Shown here: positions 13,673 to 60,831 of the stretch, piece by piece
Position numbering within the stretch: position 1 is the stretch's first letter
How the letters are laid out: each line of letters opens with the position of its first letter
Source of the DNA: Escherichia phage vB_EcoM-172859UKE1
Length of the DNA stretch: 64,000 bases
Sequence record: MZ234025.1
Reading direction: 5' to 3' (one strand)
Made by a program: the position numbers and the translations under genes
The notes under the pieces: generated by a model
Told to the model about the DNA's origin: nothing
The model's database searches: none
The model's input: the letters and a program-made list of their open reading frames with translations, nothing else

Positions 13673-15090
13673 ATGGCTTTTACAGTTGATATAACTCCTA
13701 AAACACCTACTGGAGTTATAGATCAGACTCAGCAGTTTACTGCTACACCCAGTGGTCAAACTGGAGATGGACCTATTACATATGCTTGGACTGTAGATGA
13801 TGTTCCACAAGATGGAGCTGAAGCAACTTTTAGTTATGTACTAAAAGGACCTGCCGGTCAAAAGACTATTAAAGTAGTTGCAACAAACCCAGTCCTAGAC
13901 GCTGAAGCTGAAACAGCAGAAGCTACTACAACTATCACAGTTCAAAATAAGACACAAACGACCACCTTAGCTGTAACTCCTAATAGCCCTGACGCTGGAG
14001 TAATTGGAACAGCTATTGAATTTACTGCTACTTTAGCTTCGCAGCCATCGGGCGCAAACGCTACTTATCAATGGTATGTAGATGATTCTCCTGTGGGCGA
14101 AGCAACTAACGCTACGTTCAATTACACTCCTGCCGAAAGCGGGGTAAAAAGAATTAAGTGTGTGGCTCAAGTAACTGCGACAGATTATGATGCACTAAGC
14201 GTTACTTCTAATGAAGTATCACTGACTGTTAATAAAAAGACACAGACAACTACTTTGGCAGTAACTCCCGATAGTCCTTCAGCTGGAGTAATTGGAACCC
14301 CAGTTCAATTTACTGCTGCCTTAGCTTCTCAACCAGTTGGAGCGTCTGCTACGTATCAGTGGTATGTAGATGATTCACAAGTTGGTGGAGAAACTAACTC
14401 TACATTTAGCTATACTCCAACTACAAGTGGAGTTAAAAAATTAAATGCGTAGCCCAAGTAACCGCGGCAGATTATGATGCAAAGGAAGTTACTTCTAATG
14501 AAGTATCATTAACGGTTAATAAGAAGACAATGAATCCACAGGTTACATTGACTCCTCCTTCTATTAACGTTCAGCAAGATGCTTCAGCTACATTTACCGC
14601 TAATGTCACTGATGCTCCAGAAGAAGCGCAAATTGCGTATTCATGGAAGAAAGATTCTTCTCCTGTAGAAGGATCAACTAATGTATATACCGTTGATACC
14701 TCATCTATTGGAAGTCAAACTATTGAAGTTACTGCAACTGTTACTGCTACTGATTATGATAGCAAAACTATTACAGCAGAAGGTCAAGTTCAGGTAACTG
14801 ATAAAGTTGCTCCAGAACCAGAAGGTGAATTACCTTATGTTCATCCTCTTCCACATCGTACTTCAGCTTACATCTGGTGCGGTTGGTGGGTTATGGATGA
14901 AATCCAAAAAATGACTGAAGAAGGTAAAGATTGGAAAACTGAAGATCCAGATAGTAAATACTACCTGCATCGTTACACTCTTCAGAAGATGATGAAAGAC
15001 TACCCAGAAGTTGATGTTCAAGAATCACGTAATGGATACATCATCCATAAAACTGCTTTGGAAACTGGTATCATCTATACATATCCATAA
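13673..15090 (+). CDS. hoc: Hoc-like capsid decoration protein, Ig-like repeats, frame interrupted in A6 run (ORFs 13673..14452 and 14530..15090)
   Basis: N-terminal Ig-like repeats and C-terminal ...YLHRYTLQKMMKDYPEVDVQESRNGYIIHKTALETGIIYTYP recognised as Hoc; one-base frame difference at 14435-14440. Confidence 0.8.
13947..14517 (+). repeat. tandem duplication of an Ig-like domain coding unit inside hoc (13947..14230 and 14231..14517)
   Basis: Two consecutive about 285-nt units encoding NK(K)TQTTTLAVTP...ATYQWYVDDS...SNEVSLTV. Confidence 0.8.
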
Positions 15091-55577: not shown

Positions 55578-55586
55578 AATAATACG

Positions 55587-55608
55587 GAGGACTCCGGTCC
55601 TCCTTTTG
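55587..55608 (+). terminator. hairpin (GGAGGAC-TCCG-GTCCTCC) + TTTT, probably an attenuating terminator
   Basis: Perfect 7-bp stem followed by short T-run; next gene starts 19 nt later. Confidence 0.45.
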
Positions 55609-55626: not shown

Positions 55627-56229
55627 ATGCGAAACCAAAATAATGATATTGACTCAATGTTCGAAGAGTTCCGAGATAAGGTAAATCCACCTACGTCTTT
55701 AGTTGATTCATTACGATATGTTGCAACCGGACGTAAATGGTACTGGTCGTCTTCTTATGAGACTACTGAGAAAACGGCTAGCCATAGCAGAAAATCTTTA
55801 TTAGCCCCAGGTATTATGATTCATGATATCGGAGCTATTGCTAAACTAGTTGCAGACCATGATATTAGATTCACTGATTTCGTTGCTCCTACATGGTCTG
55901 TTTGTTGTTTAAACACTGAATTGGAATATATCAGCGAACGCTCTGAAGATTATTATGGTTTTAGAGATAAGCTTCTGAGGTCTAATATGTTTTATATCGA
56001 TACAGAAGTTCTAGTCGATAATAAAAAATATTACTTTACGTTAATCATCGATTCTGAAACTATGTATGAAGGCAAGCCTTTGCTTAAAAGAGTTGATGCT
56101 TTAAGTGCTATTGATGCGCTTTATGAAACTATGGTTGTTAGTCCTAATTTCACTAACAATTTAATCCTTGAGCAATTTATTATGGAATGTAGAGAATATG
56201 TCAAAGCCAACCCTGTACATGCCAATTAA
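55627..56229 (+). CDS. hypothetical protein (200 aa) with junction motif FIMECR near the C-terminus
   Basis: ATG 55627 with AAAGGAG SD. Confidence 0.55.
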   Translation: MRNQNNDIDSMFEEFRDKVNPPTSLVDSLRYVATGRKWYWSSSYETTEKTASHSRKSLLAPGIMIHDIGAIAKLVADHDIRFTDFVAPTWSVCCLNTELEYISERSEDYYGFRDKLLRSNMFYIDTEVLVDNKKYYFTLIIDSETMYEGKPLLKRVDALSAIDALYETMVVSPNFTNNLILEQFIMECREYVKANPVHAN

Positions 56230-56593
56230 GCCCTGGGCGTATGAATACAAGCGTAAATTAATCCCAAACGAAGTACTATTTGGCCCTATTTTAGCTTTAG
56301 CATTTTTAATCTTTATGATTGTAGGAGCTGTTTTAGATTCTAGTGAAGTTATATCGTCTGATGCAGTGTTTTTACTTATTATAGCCGGGTCGTTTATTGT
56401 GCCATTTTTATTAATGCCTATTAACTGGGTGGGATATTGGTACCAAGGCCGTCATCACAGAGCTCGAGTTCGTGAATGGAAAGTTCAGTGCGCAAAAGCC
56501 AAAGCTCAGTATGATGAAGCTGTTAAAAAGTATGAATATGAAGAAGCTATGGAATTCGTTAAGGAAATAAGATGCAAAAGCCTCAACTCTTAA
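56198..56593 (+). CDS. small 2-TM membrane protein (131 aa), C-terminal ..EFVKEIRCK..
   Basis: ATG 56198 (track starts at TTG 56168); two hydrophobic helices; overlaps upstream gene by 32 nt. Confidence 0.5.
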   Translation: MSKPTLYMPIKPWAYEYKRKLIPNEVLFGPILALAFLIFMIVGAVLDSSEVISSDAVFLLIIAGSFIVPFLLMPINWVGYWYQGRHHRARVREWKVQCAKAKAQYDEAVKKYEYEEAMEFVKEIRCKSLNS

Positions 56594-56931
56594 CCGTATG
56601 GCCTTCTCTTGGTGAGAACATTCTAATTTTTATTATGAGTATTGGCATGGGATTTGCCTTTGGATTAGTTGGATTTCTTATTGACGGCGTTGTGTTAGGA
56701 TTTATAGGGAACACTGGTGGATTCACAGACCAATGGCAGGACTTACGATATACTCAAGCCTTTGCATCAATCGCATCCTTTTGTACAGTAGTCTATTTTT
56801 ACTACGATTTTATAAACCATAACAAGAAAAATAAAAAGGTTTACGCTTCTCAAATGATTAGTTATAATGAACTCCTAGCTAGACGTGAAAATGAAACAAT
56901 CGAAAACTTTATTAAGGAATGTAGAAAATGA
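56572..56931 (+). CDS. small multi-TM membrane protein (119 aa), C-terminal ..ENFIKECRK
   Basis: ATG directly after the upstream junction motif. Confidence 0.5.
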   Translation: MQKPQLLTVWPSLGENILIFIMSIGMGFAFGLVGFLIDGVVLGFIGNTGGFTDQWQDLRYTQAFASIASFCTVVYFYYDFINHNKKNKKVYASQMISYNELLARRENETIENFIKECRK

Positions 56932-57233
56932 GTAAGATTATTGAAATTAAAGTACCAGAGTTTAATGATGCCAAATCCGCTTCAGATGCAATTTATAAAC
57001 TTCTGAATCAAGCTGAACGTATCGAAGAAGAAGCAACAAAGATCGCAGACCAATATGCCGTATCATTTTCTGTAGGTGATTATGGTAGCGGTCGTACTTA
57101 TTATCCTAAGGGTGAAATCGTATCCCAGTGGATGAAAGATGAAATTGAAAATAATGGTGGCGATGTTAAGCGTGAAGGTAATGGTTACGTTATTACTGAA
57201 GGTGCTTGGGTTTCGTCTTCTGCGTTGTGCTAA
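56928..57233 (+). CDS. paralog A of tandem family ending GAWVSSSALC (101 aa)
   Basis: ATGA-coupled; shares C-terminal G-x-W-V-x-S-S-x-x-C with the next two genes. Confidence 0.55.
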   Translation: MSKIIEIKVPEFNDAKSASDAIYKLLNQAERIEEEATKIADQYAVSFSVGDYGSGRTYYPKGEIVSQWMKDEIENNGGDVKREGNGYVITEGAWVSSSALC

Positions 57234-57242
57234 GGAATCATT

Positions 57243-57515
57243 ATGTCTAAAGAACAAACCGAACTGGCTGAAGCTGTAGCAAAAATCTATGCAGCTATTG
57301 AGGCTGCCAAAGAAATTGCTGATAAACAAAACACAACATTCGACTTGTATCCAGCTTATGGTATGGGTGGAACCTATCATTCACCCGGACATCTTAAAGC
57401 CGATCTTGAACGTTGTACAAAAAACGGTTATGCTGAATGGGCTGATGTTTATCAATACGACTACAACCTGAGCCTTGAAGATGGTGGTTGGGTTGCATCT
57501 TCACACACTTGCTAA
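57243..57515 (+). CDS. paralog B of tandem family ending GGWVASSHTC (90 aa)
   Basis: SD TAAGGAA; conserved junction TGC-TAA-GGAA. Confidence 0.55.
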   Translation: MSKEQTELAEAVAKIYAAIEAAKEIADKQNTTFDLYPAYGMGGTYHSPGHLKADLERCTKNGYAEWADVYQYDYNLSLEDGGWVASSHTC

Positions 57516-57524
57516 GGAAACCAT

Positions 57525-57722
57525 ATGTCTCGTGAATTAGATTGTGCTGTACGTACCGCGGTAGCTGCTCTAGAAAACCTGTTCCAAATTGCAACAGAAG
57601 AACGCGAAGAAGTTACATTATGGATTGAAGATAACGCAGGTCTGAATCTCCAGGACGCGATCTCATTATCTAATAATAGCATTACTGTTCAAGGCTGGGT
57701 ATCGTCTAGTTATTCTTGCTAA
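57525..57722 (+). CDS. paralog C of tandem family ending QGWVSSSYSC (65 aa)
   Basis: SD AAGGAAA; conserved junction TGC-TAA-GGAA. Confidence 0.55.
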   Translation: MSRELDCAVRTAVAALENLFQIATEEREEVTLWIEDNAGLNLQDAISLSNNSITVQGWVSSSYSC

Positions 57723-57726
57723 AACA

Positions 57727-57756
57727 GTTTACAATAAGATAGGACTATGTTATAGT
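57727..57756 (+). promoter_or_regulatory. T4-type early promoter cassette with GGACTA/TAGTCC inverted repeat
   Basis: GTTTAC 57727-57732, TATAGT 57751-57756. Confidence 0.6.
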
Positions 57757-57784
57757 AGTCCTATCAAATTAAATGGAGTCCGCA

Positions 57785-58024
57785 ATGATTTATTACGAAA
57801 GTATCGGAACCAAAGTGATTGGTAAAACCATTACTCGTGAAAAGTTTGCAAAGATATTCGATATGCGTTATAAAAAATCTGAACACAAAGGCATCCGATT
57901 CGAAGATGCGCACTGTACAATTTGCCCTTATAATGAAGACATAAATGGTACAATCGTTCCATTGGTAGAGGCTTCACATGATGACCTCTGGGATGAATAT
58001 AATATCGCATGTCGTGAAATTTAA
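57785..58024 (+). CDS. hypothetical protein (79 aa)
   Basis: ATG 57785 with GGAG 6 nt upstream. Confidence 0.5.
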   Translation: MIYYESIGTKVIGKTITREKFAKIFDMRYKKSEHKGIRFEDAHCTICPYNEDINGTIVPLVEASHDDLWDEYNIACREI

Positions 58025-58052: not shown

Positions 58053-59009
58053 ATGATGTTAGTTATTGGTTCTCGTGCACTTCACTATCATGGTCTTATT
58101 GATTCTAGCGCTATCAAAAATAGTGATTGGGACTTTATTGCGGACCAAGGTTCTTGGAATGCATTCAAAAATCAAATGATGGGTGTATATGTTCACCAAG
58201 ATAACCCTGATGTCCAAGTTTTCAAATGCTTCCATAATGGACGCGAAACTCATTTTGAAGCATATATTGTTCCGGCGATCACTAATGTCCGTGAATTAGT
58301 CGGTGAACTCACTCCTGAAGATTTCACGTCTTCTTATGACCTTTTAAAATACGCCAAGAAAAATTTGACTAAAGACCGTTTGACCGGGTTTTACTGGGCA
58401 ACTCCTGAGATATGTCTTGCAATTAAAATGTCTCATCGTTTCAAGAAAAATAATCCATTCTTTTTAAAGACTATGAACCATATTCAGTATCTTCGCGGTA
58501 AAGGTGTTACACTGAACGATGAACTTACTGAAATTATGCTGAAACGCCAGAAAGAAACTTTGAACTATGCTCACCCGGTTCTTGACACTTCTAAAAGTGC
58601 GTTCTTTAAAGATGACATCTATACATATGACCATGATACTATTCATGAAGCCATTGCACTAACTGACCAGCCTGCTTATAAGTTTTATATGAAAGAAGGC
58701 TCAGAAGTTATGACATCACGCGAGAAGTTCGAATCATTACCAGAAATGGTTAAATTAGCCGGTGTATATGAAGAAGCTTGTGTATTAGCTCTTGAACGTT
58801 CACAGATTCCTAACGACTTTAAAATCCATCCGAGTGATAGTTTTATGATGGCCCTTGAAAAGGTCTGTACATCAATCACATCAGGATGGTTCCGTGAGTT
58901 CGCTTGGGAAAATTATAGCAAAGTAGTAAGTATGTACCAAAGCTTAGGACATGACGATTACGTCAAGCGTTTCAAACAAAACTTTCATATGGTAAAACCT
59001 TTCAAATAA
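58053..59009 (+). CDS. hypothetical 318-aa protein; N-terminus has a GS...DxD pattern weakly reminiscent of Pol-beta-type nucleotidyltransferases
   Basis: ATG with GAGGAAAA SD; VIGSRALHYHGLIDSSAIKNSDWDFIAD; functional call is inference only. Confidence 0.55.
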   Translation: MMLVIGSRALHYHGLIDSSAIKNSDWDFIADQGSWNAFKNQMMGVYVHQDNPDVQVFKCFHNGRETHFEAYIVPAITNVRELVGELTPEDFTSSYDLLKYAKKNLTKDRLTGFYWATPEICLAIKMSHRFKKNNPFFLKTMNHIQYLRGKGVTLNDELTEIMLKRQKETLNYAHPVLDTSKSAFFKDDIYTYDHDTIHEAIALTDQPAYKFYMKEGSEVMTSREKFESLPEMVKLAGVYEEACVLALERSQIPNDFKIHPSDSFMMALEKVCTSITSGWFREFAWENYSKVVSMYQSLGHDDYVKRFKQNFHMVKPFK

Positions 59010-59346: not shown

Positions 59347-59652
59347 ATGAAATTAACAGAAACCAACCGAATCGGTCTTTTTACAATATTTGCATCGCTT
59401 TTTTACGCAGCTCTTTCTGTTGCAGTATTACAAAAGGCTTACGATATGGATGGTGTTCCTGGTTGTATATTTTTATCACCGTTTTTATTATTCGTCGGAG
59501 CTTTGATATTATATGCCACGTCCGGTTTAGACCATAATGTCTGGGTCAATTATAAACGTAAATTGTCCGAAGAAGAACACGCAGAAGCTCGTAAAAAAGC
59601 TATTGAATCTACCAATCTAGAAAATTTCATTAAAGAATGTCGAGGAAAATAA
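59347..59652 (+). CDS. small 2-TM membrane protein (101 aa), C-terminal ..ENFIKECRGK
   Basis: SD GAGGAG; hydrophobic helices. Confidence 0.55.
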   Translation: MKLTETNRIGLFTIFASLFYAALSVAVLQKAYDMDGVPGCIFLSPFLLFVGALILYATSGLDHNVWVNYKRKLSEEEHAEARKKAIESTNLENFIKECRGK

Positions 59653-59653
59653 T

Positions 59654-60340
59654 ATGAATAGTTCTAAAGTGTTTAATAGTCAAGCTCGTGCAGTAGGTGG
59701 TTTTGCCGGCGGTATTTCTAATGATAAAATCAAGAACGAGCCTATGTTCTTCAACTGTAGTTTAGAATTTGCTTATAATAACGGCGGTCCTATTACTCGC
59801 TCTTTCATTATGAACTTGCCGGATGATTGGAACACCGACCAGGTTGTATTTGATTCACGAGTCCACATGCTGATGCCTGGTTGGTATCCTGCAATCCCAG
59901 GCTATCACCATGATGACGTACCACGCCCAGATATTCCAGTTGGTCAACACTTTATTACTGCAGGACAACCTGACTATGACAACCCTCGTTACCATTCTGA
60001 ACATATTCTTGGTCTTGTTAACGCTGATGTGTGTCCTACTCATTTTGCAACAGGAACTGCGGAGTTCAGTCAGATTCCTTATGGCGAACTTATCTATCGC
60101 CAGTGGCACAAAGAAGTCCTCGAAAAAATTGAAAAAGGTGAACTAGAGAAATGGGAAGCTCCAGATCGTACTCTTCTTCAGTTTGATTGGCAAACATGGC
60201 ACACTGGTTCTCGTGCAATTAGTAACGGATGGCGTTGGTTCGGACGTGTATCTCGTAATACAGACCGAGTTAAAAAGATTACCAATGAAATTCGTGTCAA
60301 TGCTCAAGTTTATCTGGAATTCCCTATGGAAGGCTGGTAA
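59654..60340 (+). CDS. hypothetical protein (228 aa), His/Asp-rich
   Basis: Starts 1 nt after previous stop, directly after the junction motif. Confidence 0.55.
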   Translation: MNSSKVFNSQARAVGGFAGGISNDKIKNEPMFFNCSLEFAYNNGGPITRSFIMNLPDDWNTDQVVFDSRVHMLMPGWYPAIPGYHHDDVPRPDIPVGQHFITAGQPDYDNPRYHSEHILGLVNADVCPTHFATGTAEFSQIPYGELIYRQWHKEVLEKIEKGELEKWEAPDRTLLQFDWQTWHTGSRAISNGWRWFGRVSRNTDRVKKITNEIRVNAQVYLEFPMEGW

Positions 60341-60831
60341 TGATACATAAAATTCACTGGGCAAACATGGACGATGACGACGAAGGTACTTCATATTATT
60401 CTATAGATTGGACAGGATGTCCATCCTACTTAGTGAAACGTCATTGTCAAGCATTTAAAATCGACCAGCCAGCAGGTATTATTGTGAACAGATACATTAA
60501 CGGATATCAACCTATCGATGAAGTAATACGAACAACTCAAGCTGAGCTTGAAAAGTTTTTCAATAAGTGCCAATGGATAACAGGATGGATTATATTTGTA
60601 CCGTCAGTGTGGTTTTTTAGTACTAAGGTGAGTTCTTTCGGTTTTGTTGATATTATTGCTATCTTATTAGCATCTAGTATCATAAGTGTTGTTGGTGGCA
60701 TCATTGGCGGCGGTACCGCCGCCATCATTATTAATCTTATTAAAAGTAGTTTACAAGAACATAAAGACAAGATAAAAGCCAAGAATAATGAAGTTGAACG
60801 TTTTATTACCGAATGCAGGAATTTGAGATGA
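60340..60831 (+). CDS. membrane protein (163 aa): soluble N-domain ending ..LEKFFNKCQ fused to TM segment, C-terminal ..ERFITECRNLR
   Basis: TAATG-coupled; internal and terminal copies of the junction motif. Confidence 0.55.
   Translation: MIHKIHWANMDDDDEGTSYYSIDWTGCPSYLVKRHCQAFKIDQPAGIIVNRYINGYQPIDEVIRTTQAELEKFFNKCQWITGWIIFVPSVWFFSTKVSSFGFVDIIAILLASSIISVVGGIIGGGTAAIIINLIKSSLQEHKDKIKAKNNEVERFITECRNLR

Follow-up and report, generated by a model that had tools for sequence, protein, structure and literature searches.

Three small genes with a common C-terminal tail

The stretch of DNA analyzed here (the window) comprises 64,000 nucleotides of Escherichia phage vB_EcoM-172859UKE1 (accession # MZ234025.1). 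Its subject is a set of three consecutive small genes, p1 to p3, together with the gene of a nucleotidyltransferase-fold protein located downstream of them. The window belongs to an RB69-like Mosigvirus; identity to other phages of this group is 97-99% over the region, with Shigella phage SSE1 as the closest. Our reading of the locus agrees with an initial annotation, made from the letters alone, that described three consecutive genes at 56928-57722, each ending in G-x-W-V-x-S-S-x-x-Cys directly before the stop codon; p1, p2, and p3 are plus strand open reading frames (ORFs) in one shared frame. The genes and the segments encoding their tails are as follows.

56928..57233, plus strand: p1, 101 amino acids, isoelectric point (pI) 4.6; subfamily A; core YGSGRTYYP; C-terminus ...EGAWVSSSALC
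57207..57230, plus strand: p1 tail W-V-S-S-S-A-L-C, then TAA
57243..57515, plus strand: p2, 90 amino acids, pI 4.7; subfamily B; core YGMGGTY; C-terminus ...DGGWVASSHTC
57489..57512, plus strand: p2 tail W-V-A-S-S-H-T-C, then TAA
57525..57722, plus strand: p3, 65 amino acids, pI 4.05; subfamily D; N-terminus MSRELDCAVRTA; C-terminus ...VQGWVSSSYSC
57696..57719, plus strand: p3 tail W-V-S-S-S-Y-S-C, then TAA

As the initial annotation had it, TGC-TAA-GGAA is read at both the p1/p2 and the p2/p3 junction. The Shine-Dalgarno-like AAGGA contained in it precedes the next ATG. Consecutive genes are separated by TAA plus 9 nt, and the 9-nt spacers are GGAATCATT and GGAAACCAT. The upstream membrane-protein gene and p1 share an ATGA, in which the stop of the former overlaps the start of the latter. 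Compact packing of this sort is the usual gene arrangement in T-even phages, and the 9-nt spacing also recurs in Dhakavirus-type arrays (loci L006, L007, and L014-L016). The single frame and the exact 9-nt spacers suggest that translation of the three genes is coupled, or re-initiates from one gene to the next, which would yield the small proteins in roughly equal amounts.

All three proteins are acidic (pI 4.05-4.68). They are probably cytoplasmic, since neither a signal peptide nor a membrane segment is evident in their sequences. An amphipathic helix had been proposed to precede the tail in each of them; an N-terminal helix is supported for p2, the one of the three that was modeled. The AlphaFold2 model of p2 (mean predicted local distance difference test score, pLDDT, 86.6) has helices at residues 3-29, 48-60, and 66-73 and strands at 32-34, 43-46, and 81-85. 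The last strand is formed by G-W-V-A-S.

Two public records contain shorter versions of these proteins. In the RB69 reference record p1 is truncated (P0002, RB69ORF139c, 71 amino acids); it diverges after ...VSQW and the Cys tail is absent. In the record of vB_Eco_mar005P1 (P0018), p2 has just 75 amino acids, and the match extends over 67% of the query. Either natural loss of a single copy or a sequencing frameshift would account for these short forms.

Conservation of the tail

Among the 560 stop-to-stop ORFs of at least 40 amino acids in the window, W-x-[SAP]-S-S-x-x-C is found at the C-terminus of p1, p2, and p3 only. The number of such ORFs expected from the amino-acid composition is 2e-4 per window, which rules out a chance origin of the tail. 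The one other six-frame match, WNPSSIYC at 14293-14316 (plus strand), is internal to its frame rather than C-terminal and is probably due to chance.

We built a family profile from ten diverse members and used it in an exhaustive search of 1.84 billion representatives (clusters at 50% identity). The search returned 567 representatives at E<=1e-3, 53 of them at E<=1e-10; most have 70-110 amino acids and are acidic. In nearly all of the 150 matches listed (of 567), the match reaches the last residue of the protein. The family hidden Markov model (HMM) matches p1 with an E value of 5.9e-23. Members share a core in which a helix is followed by IADE-x-G-x-x-F-x-F, by (A)YGMGGTYY, by a variable acidic loop rich in Trp and Ser, and by the tail. 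The family is defined by an N-terminal amphipathic helix and the invariant extreme C-terminal G-x-W-x-(S/A/P)-S-S-x-x-Cys-COOH.

Tail positions were counted in the best-scoring 146 of the 567 representatives. Cys is the exact last residue in 136 of them, so that the conserved C-terminal Cys proposed in the initial annotation belongs to a real protein family. Trp at -7 and Ser at -4 are present in all 136 Cys-ending members and Ser at -3 in 134; the rest of the 146 mostly have one residue beyond the Cys. Position -5 is occupied by S, A, or P; polar residues are found at -2 (Q/S/E) and at -1 (S/M/Q/N); and glycines are frequent at -9 and -8. The tail is not an artifact of the shared junction nucleotides, because it is conserved at the protein level far outside the window, in hundreds of proteins whose genes have different junctions.

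Some members contain shorter internal copies of the motif, W-x-S-S-(S)-C. Since it is found on non-homologous bodies as well as in these internal copies, the tail behaves as a short functional motif rather than as an element of a fold. A further subtype carries two short motifs, ...DW(L/Q)SSSCYGEGD...(I/V)W(E/H)SSSC-stop, with the first copy internal (L003 2454-2678 in Yersinia phage fHe-Yen9-01; L032 2371-2631 in phage ESCO13). Its Cys follows straight after SSS; the spacing from Trp to Cys is therefore not fixed between subtypes.

Metal binding by the C-terminal Cys had been raised as a possibility in the initial annotation. A terminal thiol in each of several co-encoded proteins could serve to bind a metal or an iron-sulfur cluster jointly; the functional unit would then be a homo- or hetero-oligomer with one thiolate from each subunit. 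A single Cys, as the last residue, is present in 87 of the 146 representatives (median pI 4.5), and where 2-5 members are encoded together, the tight 9-nt spacing suggests stoichiometric co-translation. Some phages, however, have a single member only (L025, L026, L029, and L031), no known metal-site motif is present, and metal ligation does not explain the invariant Trp and Ser-Ser. We consider this explanation very unlikely.

The statement in the initial annotation that no characterized function is recognizable still stands. Pfam (run on p1 to p3 and 60 family members), NCBIfam, PADLOC, and a sequence profile search of the PDB gave only sub-threshold noise. A fold search with the p2 model had no significant PDB match and, in BFVD, returned uncharacterized proteins alone, apparently of the same family. 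The published literature contained nothing on these genes when searched by motif, by DUF family, or by accessory genes of RB69 and Mosigvirus. In PHROGs, p1 (E 1.3e-22) and p2 (E 4.8e-19) match phrog_899 over the C-terminal part of the profile, and p3 matches phrog_4882 end to end (E 1.1e-36, residues 1-65 of 65). These are automatic clusters labeled as unknown function, in which the tail, its sharing between the two clusters, and the link to the enzyme described below are unrecorded. Ubiquitin-like sulfur carriers such as ThiS and MoaD differ in their C-terminal Gly-Gly, in place of which the tail here ends in S-S-x-x-Cys; their beta-grasp fold was not matched either, the p2 model being helical with three strands.

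Age of the array

The triplet had been interpreted as a recent tandem amplification. This is ruled out by the low identity of p1 and p2 (30% over 54 residues), by the tail-only match of p3, and by the presence of the same arrays in distant phages. In BLAST, the alignment of p3 to p1 or p2 covers the 9-residue tail only; likewise, hhalign aligned the p3 profile to the main family over the last 9 columns alone, with a probability of 83%. Apart from the tail and a general helix-first layout, p3 has nothing in common with p1 and p2. Judged by their sequences, p1 and p2 are ancient paralogs, and p3 is the same tail on a body with no detectable homology to theirs.

The same ordered array is found in Dhakavirus and in related phages of Klebsiella, Enterobacter, Citrobacter, and Yersinia, where a fourth type, ending FW(Y/F)-x-SSM-x-C, often joins it. 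Orthologs of p1 in other T-even relatives are 62-66% identical; p3 has orthologs in 251 phage records; and relatives of p2, as well as tandem pairs, are present in contigs of ~370 kb phages. Because the ordered array is shared by distant relatives and tandem pairs occur even in the ~370 kb phages, the duplication must be ancient. The number of small genes varies between 1 and 5 per phage.

Linkage of the small genes to a nucleotidyltransferase-like gene

The initial annotation looked to the membrane-protein genes directly upstream as possible partners. These accompany the small genes in T-even relatives only, and T4 has the membrane-protein genes e.3 and e.4 without the small genes. The partner that is conserved across phage lineages is a downstream gene overlooked in that annotation, which encodes a nucleotidyltransferase-like protein of 318 amino acids (hereafter, the enzyme). 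Nearly every distant family member is followed by a ~300-amino-acid homolog of it, as seen from the ORFs listed around these loci. In the window, the gap between p3 and the enzyme gene is 331 nt and holds another ORF.

57728-57765: early-promoter-like site (TTTACA, 17 nt, TATAGT, upstream TG), overlapping an inverted repeat with a 10-bp stem just after p3
57773..58024, plus strand: ORF of 83 amino acids (phrog_3723), between the triplet and the enzyme gene
58053..59009, plus strand: nucleotidyltransferase-fold protein, 318 amino acids; Pfam DUF7277 (E 9e-28) and DUF7275 (E 1e-78)

We examined the linkage in both directions. Starting from the small genes, 28 IMG/VR loci were retrieved by small-protein patterns alone. 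In 25 of these, a DUF7277/DUF7275 gene follows the small genes in the same orientation at a distance of no more than 1.3 kb. Of the three remaining loci, two end at or within ~100 bp of the small genes, and the third, L031, includes ~0.9 kb of downstream sequence.

For the reciprocal test, eight distant phages were chosen solely by tblastn to the 318-amino-acid protein. The five with full-length enzyme genes are ESCO13 (Phapecoctavirus), phiPsa397 (Otagovirus), Ralstonia phage RSP15, Stenotrophomonas phage Yut3, and an Acinetobacter Lazarusvirus. All five have 2-4 Cys-tailed ORFs within ~0.5 kb (up to 5 when a weaker match to the family HMM is counted), located upstream of the enzyme gene in four phages and downstream in Yut3. 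The remaining three, Streptomyces phage Annadreamy (L037), Gordonia phage Lozinak (L038), and KVP40 (L039), encode short enzymes and have no Cys-tailed ORFs nearby. A scan of the bacterial and archaeal assemblies in GTDB (genomes of 185,579 species) with the enzyme alignment recovered only five contigs, all from metagenome-assembled genomes or bins and probably phage-derived; each has Cys-tailed ORFs just upstream of the enzyme gene.

The pairing was thus found in 10 of 10 reciprocal samples (full-length phages and GTDB contigs together). Small genes that are upstream of and co-oriented with the enzyme gene, the layout of MenAT and AbiE systems, were found in 25 of the 28 loci and in 9 of the 10 reciprocal ones. 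In the distant phages inspected, the module does not include the 83-amino-acid ORF; there, the enzyme gene either directly adjoins the small genes or is separated from them by other ORFs. Both families were found solely in phages or phage-like contigs. The phages that carry the module include T-even relatives, rV5- and phi92-like phages, phages of Pseudomonas, Ralstonia, Stenotrophomonas, Acinetobacter, and Aeromonas, and jumbo phages.

One explanation for this distribution is that the small proteins act independently in early host takeover or against host defenses and are merely co-inherited with the enzyme in a mobile accessory cassette; they could be, e.g., acidic decoys or mimics of nucleic acids, or could bind a host protein that recognizes the W-SS-Cys tail. 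The triplet is indeed located in a variable accessory region, between transfer RNA (tRNA) genes and nudE/e, which matches T4 e.2-e.8, and it is co-transcribed with other small genes of unknown function. The acidity of the proteins, the variation in paralog number, as for genes in an arms race, and the promoter-like site upstream of the enzyme gene in the window are consistent with such a role. Against it, the p2 model had no fold similarity in PDB or BFVD to Ocr, ArdA, or Arn-type DNA mimics, which share the acidity, or to any solved protein. The adjacency to the enzyme gene also persists in all reciprocal samples, in phage groups that otherwise share little, and without a functional tie such persistence is difficult to account for. 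We regard independent effectors as unlikely, and a functional linkage between the small proteins and the enzyme as very probable.

The enzyme

G6-S7, D25-x-D27, and E69 are invariant in 36 diverse homologs of the enzyme, which thus has the signature of a Pol-beta nucleotidyltransferase; motifs I and II (hG[GS] ... [DE]x[DE]), typical of the MenAT and AbiE enzymes, are both present. Invariant positions in the C-terminal domain are K125, H128, R165, E168, H174, D193-H194-D195, H198, E240-E241, C243, E248, R249, and C272. The invariant His, Asp, Glu, and Cys residues suggest a second catalytic or metal site. The enzyme family is large, with more than 2,100 clusters at 90% identity. Short versions of ~250 amino acids keep the N-terminal GS...DxD segment and DUF7275 and lack approximately residues 30-90.

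The AlphaFold2 model of the enzyme (mean pLDDT 90.7) has a bi-lobed, MenT-like nucleotidyltransferase fold. In structure comparisons, it was nearest to the toxins MenT1, TglT/MenT3, and MenT4 and to O-nucleotidylyltransferases. The scores were 10.2 for MenT1 (149 residues aligned), 8.6 for both ANT(2'') and TglT/MenT3, 7.9 for MenT4, 7.2-7.8 for other small nucleotidyltransferases including LnuA, and about 5 for CCA-adding enzymes and poly(A) polymerases. The large C-terminal domain (DUF7275) had no informative structural match, and no sequence match to PDB chains was found for the enzyme, profile search included. Membership in DUF1814, including its motif IV, was not found; Pfam assigns DUF7277 and DUF7275 only.

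Annadreamy and RSP15 have RNA ligase genes close to that of the enzyme, and Lozinak has a tRNA cluster nearby. These neighbors hint at a role of the enzyme that is connected with RNA or tRNA.

A nucleotidyltransferase encoded beside several small proteins might also use them as substrates. The tail would then be modified covalently, and the modified proteins would be the active agents. The chemistry could be O-nucleotidylylation of Ser(-4) or Ser(-3), or nucleotidylylation of the Cys thiol; elimination and attack by the terminal Cys could then yield a C-terminal thioether ring. The two Ser and the terminal Cys are invariant and constant in their spacing while the bodies vary, several precursor-like genes are located beside one enzyme gene, the nearest structural relatives of the enzyme include ANT(2'') and LnuA, which nucleotidylylate hydroxyls, and its C-terminal domain is rich in invariant His, Asp, Glu, and Cys. 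There are also precedents for Pol-beta-fold enzymes that modify a small partner, dedicated to them or encoded nearby: MntA-type nucleotidyltransferases AMPylate HepT, and GlnD uridylylates the small PII protein. In these systems, however, a hydroxyl of a Tyr within a loop is modified rather than a Ser-Ser-x-x-Cys tail, and there is no sequence relationship to them.

The tail also resembles the cores of ribosomally synthesized and post-translationally modified peptides (RiPPs) in which an S-x-x-C segment forms an aminovinyl-cysteine or lanthionine ring: in both, a Ser is located three positions before the C-terminal Cys, and several precursor-like genes accompany one enzyme gene. Unlike RiPP precursors, which consist of leader and core, the small proteins have a conserved body that resembles a folded domain, as judged from the p2 model. 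Known substrates for decarboxylation of a C-terminal Cys are hydrophobic at -2 and -1, in contrast to the polar residues found here. According to Pfam, the eight genes around the triplet include no LanB, LanM, LanKC, or LanD-type enzyme and no dehydratase, cyclase, or Cys-decarboxylase. Taking both sides together, we view substrates of the enzyme as a rather unlikely identity for the small proteins. Quite unlikely is the more specific proposal that W-x-S-S-S-x-x-Cys-COOH is a recognition or acceptor motif for the adjacent enzyme in a phage-specific modification system that matures several small folded effectors; we know of no enzyme-substrate system of this kind.

The small proteins as putative partners of the enzyme

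The reading that we prefer, tentatively, is that the small proteins are partners of the enzyme and act on it through the tail. A conserved phage module of two parts is proposed, with proteins of the p1 to p3 type as its small component and the MenT/AbiEii-like nucleotidyltransferase-fold protein encoded just downstream as its large one. Each small protein would bind the enzyme and present its tail to the active site or to a metal site, with stacking of the Trp, the hydroxyls of both Ser, and the thiol and carboxylate of the last residue as candidate contacts. The effect of this contact would be to inhibit, time, or direct nucleotidyl transfer, as with the small antitoxins encoded upstream of nucleotidyltransferase toxins. 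The parts of this reading differ in strength. Direct binding to the enzyme through the tail is somewhat favored, an inhibitory or antitoxin-like role, suggested by analogy, is doubtful, and the insertion of the tail into the enzyme, with inhibition or targeting as its result, is speculative. We infer the physical and functional partnership, and the function of the module, from synteny and fold.

In layout and enzyme fold, the module appears most like the MenA-MenT or AbiE pairs, in which a nucleotidyltransferase has a dedicated partner. MenT toxins add nucleotides to the 3' ends of tRNAs and are controlled by partners that are usually encoded upstream (PMC10435456, PMC11375011, PMC7450476). 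MenA1 is a helical antitoxin of 68 amino acids whose gene usually precedes menT; it lies across the active sites of two MenT1 protomers and blocks them (PMC10435456), and it triggers auto-phosphorylation of MenT1 (PMC11375011). As in MenA1-MenT1 of M. tuberculosis, the gene of a small helical protein here precedes that of a Pol-beta-type nucleotidyltransferase in the same orientation. Unlike MenT1, the phage enzyme has no DUF1814 sequence match, and its C-terminal domain (DUF7275) is unrelated and much larger. The small proteins are dissimilar to MenA1, for which the invariant Cys-terminal tail is not described. Furthermore, there are 1-5 small genes per enzyme, and the module is seen in phages or phage-like contigs only.

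AbiEii (DUF1814) is related to the MenT family (PMC10435456), and the AbiEi-AbiEii pair belongs to the same structural neighborhood as the MenT matches: an effector with nucleotidyltransferase fold and a cognate partner encoded directly upstream. AbiEi, however, is an antitoxin composed of a winged helix and a C-terminal domain and is far larger than the 65-101 amino acids of the small proteins. AbiE is a bacterial defense system, whereas the module described here is carried by lytic phages. No homology of the small proteins to a known MenA or AbiEi antitoxin was found.

Several findings weigh against the preferred reading. In the window, p3 and the enzyme gene are separated by the 83-amino-acid ORF and the early-promoter-like site; the triplet and the enzyme gene are therefore not strictly one translationally coupled unit. 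The enzyme falls outside DUF1814 at the sequence level. Its overall pI is ~6, not basic, so electrostatic complementarity does not provide an argument for the binding of acidic partners. The p2 model packs W83-S87 as a beta-strand in the sheet and not as a free tail. The truncation of p1 in the RB69 reference record, with loss of the tail, means that this copy may be dispensable or that the record is in error. A set of 1-5 different small proteins per enzyme is unusual for a simple antitoxin. Finally, synteny alone cannot distinguish a regulator from a substrate or a co-acting effector.

Comparison with T4 and neighboring genes

The initial annotation recognized no characterized T4 function for the small genes, and the comparison of the two genomes agrees: T4 e.2, which corresponds to the triplet in position, encodes a protein unrelated to p1 to p3. 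T4 e.3 and e.4 have visible similarity to the two membrane-protein genes that directly precede the triplet, and T4 e.5 and e.6 occupy corresponding positions with similar lengths. With HMMs of the small family and of the enzyme, the T4 genome had no match in 1-62 kb and none is listed for 62-76 kb; 76-169 kb was not covered. T4 nrdC.11, labeled as a nucleotidyltransferase, was rejected as a homolog of the enzyme, as the enzyme profile does not match it. T4 Tk.1 (62 amino acids; L046 10346-10534, minus strand) has a weak match to the family HMM (E 2.5e-4, calculated for the ORFs of a 12-kb piece of T4 only). The match runs through LSFEISSEYGDAETYY, which resembles the SF-x-x-x-YG-x-G-x-TYY core; the W-SS-Cys tail is absent. 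Tk.1 may be a remote relative without the tail, or the match may be due to chance.

Other features around the module are the following.

55586-55603: GC-rich hairpin GGAGGAC-TCCG-GTCCTCC, with a terminator-like score on both strands
56168-56593, plus strand: predicted membrane protein
56572-56931, plus strand: predicted membrane protein
59347-59652, plus strand: predicted membrane protein
60340-60831, plus strand: predicted membrane protein

The hairpin is located just before a 207-amino-acid, e.5-like ORF and marks where the closely spaced series of genes ending with p3 begins. Downstream of the triplet, the promoter-like site and inverted repeat at 57728-57765 resemble the promoter-plus-stem-loop (PeSL) junctions reported from hyperplastic regions of T4-like phages (PMC4122927). 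A recombination boundary that separates the triplet from the following ORFs could lie at this site.

The flanking membrane proteins make up another family of paralogs in which a Cys near the C-terminus is conserved. Three of the four share a cytoplasmic tail, (E/N)-x-F-(I/V)-x-E-C-R (FIKECRK, FIKECRGK, and FITECRNLR), and the fourth (56168-56593) has a related end, FVKEIRCKSLNS. Similar tails are found in T4 e.3 (FVIDCRKIK), in T4 e.4 (FVKESRCKSQS), and in the Yersinia phage of locus L003 (1802-2113 and 2113-2457). The ECR-type motif partly overlaps the Shine-Dalgarno sequence of the following gene. The cytosine-arabinosylation cluster of RB69 (PMC13326640) is located elsewhere in the genome and is unrelated to the triplet locus.

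Annotations and significance

Public records assign functions to some of these genes that look unsupported: tail completion protein or helicase for p2-type genes, and prohead assembly scaffold protein for the nucleotidyltransferase-like gene. The label sulfurtransferase for the e.4-like membrane protein, e.g., at L001 4599-4994 in phage vB_Eco_F27, was likewise rejected, having no support from PHROGs or Pfam. For the window's versions of these genes, searches of Pfam and PHROGs gave families of unknown function or nothing significant. The present analysis corrects these annotations.

The module is widespread, with 567 representatives of the small family and more than 2,100 clusters of the enzyme, yet it is unannotated everywhere. 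The strictly terminal, invariant Cys after an invariant Trp and Ser-Ser is an unusual feature. A tail that serves as a modification substrate would represent phage protein chemistry of a new kind. Lytic phages would carry a regulated tRNA-modifying or related nucleotidyl-transfer activity if the enzyme acts in the manner of MenT toxins; this would bear on host shut-off and on counter-defense against tRNA-targeting toxins.

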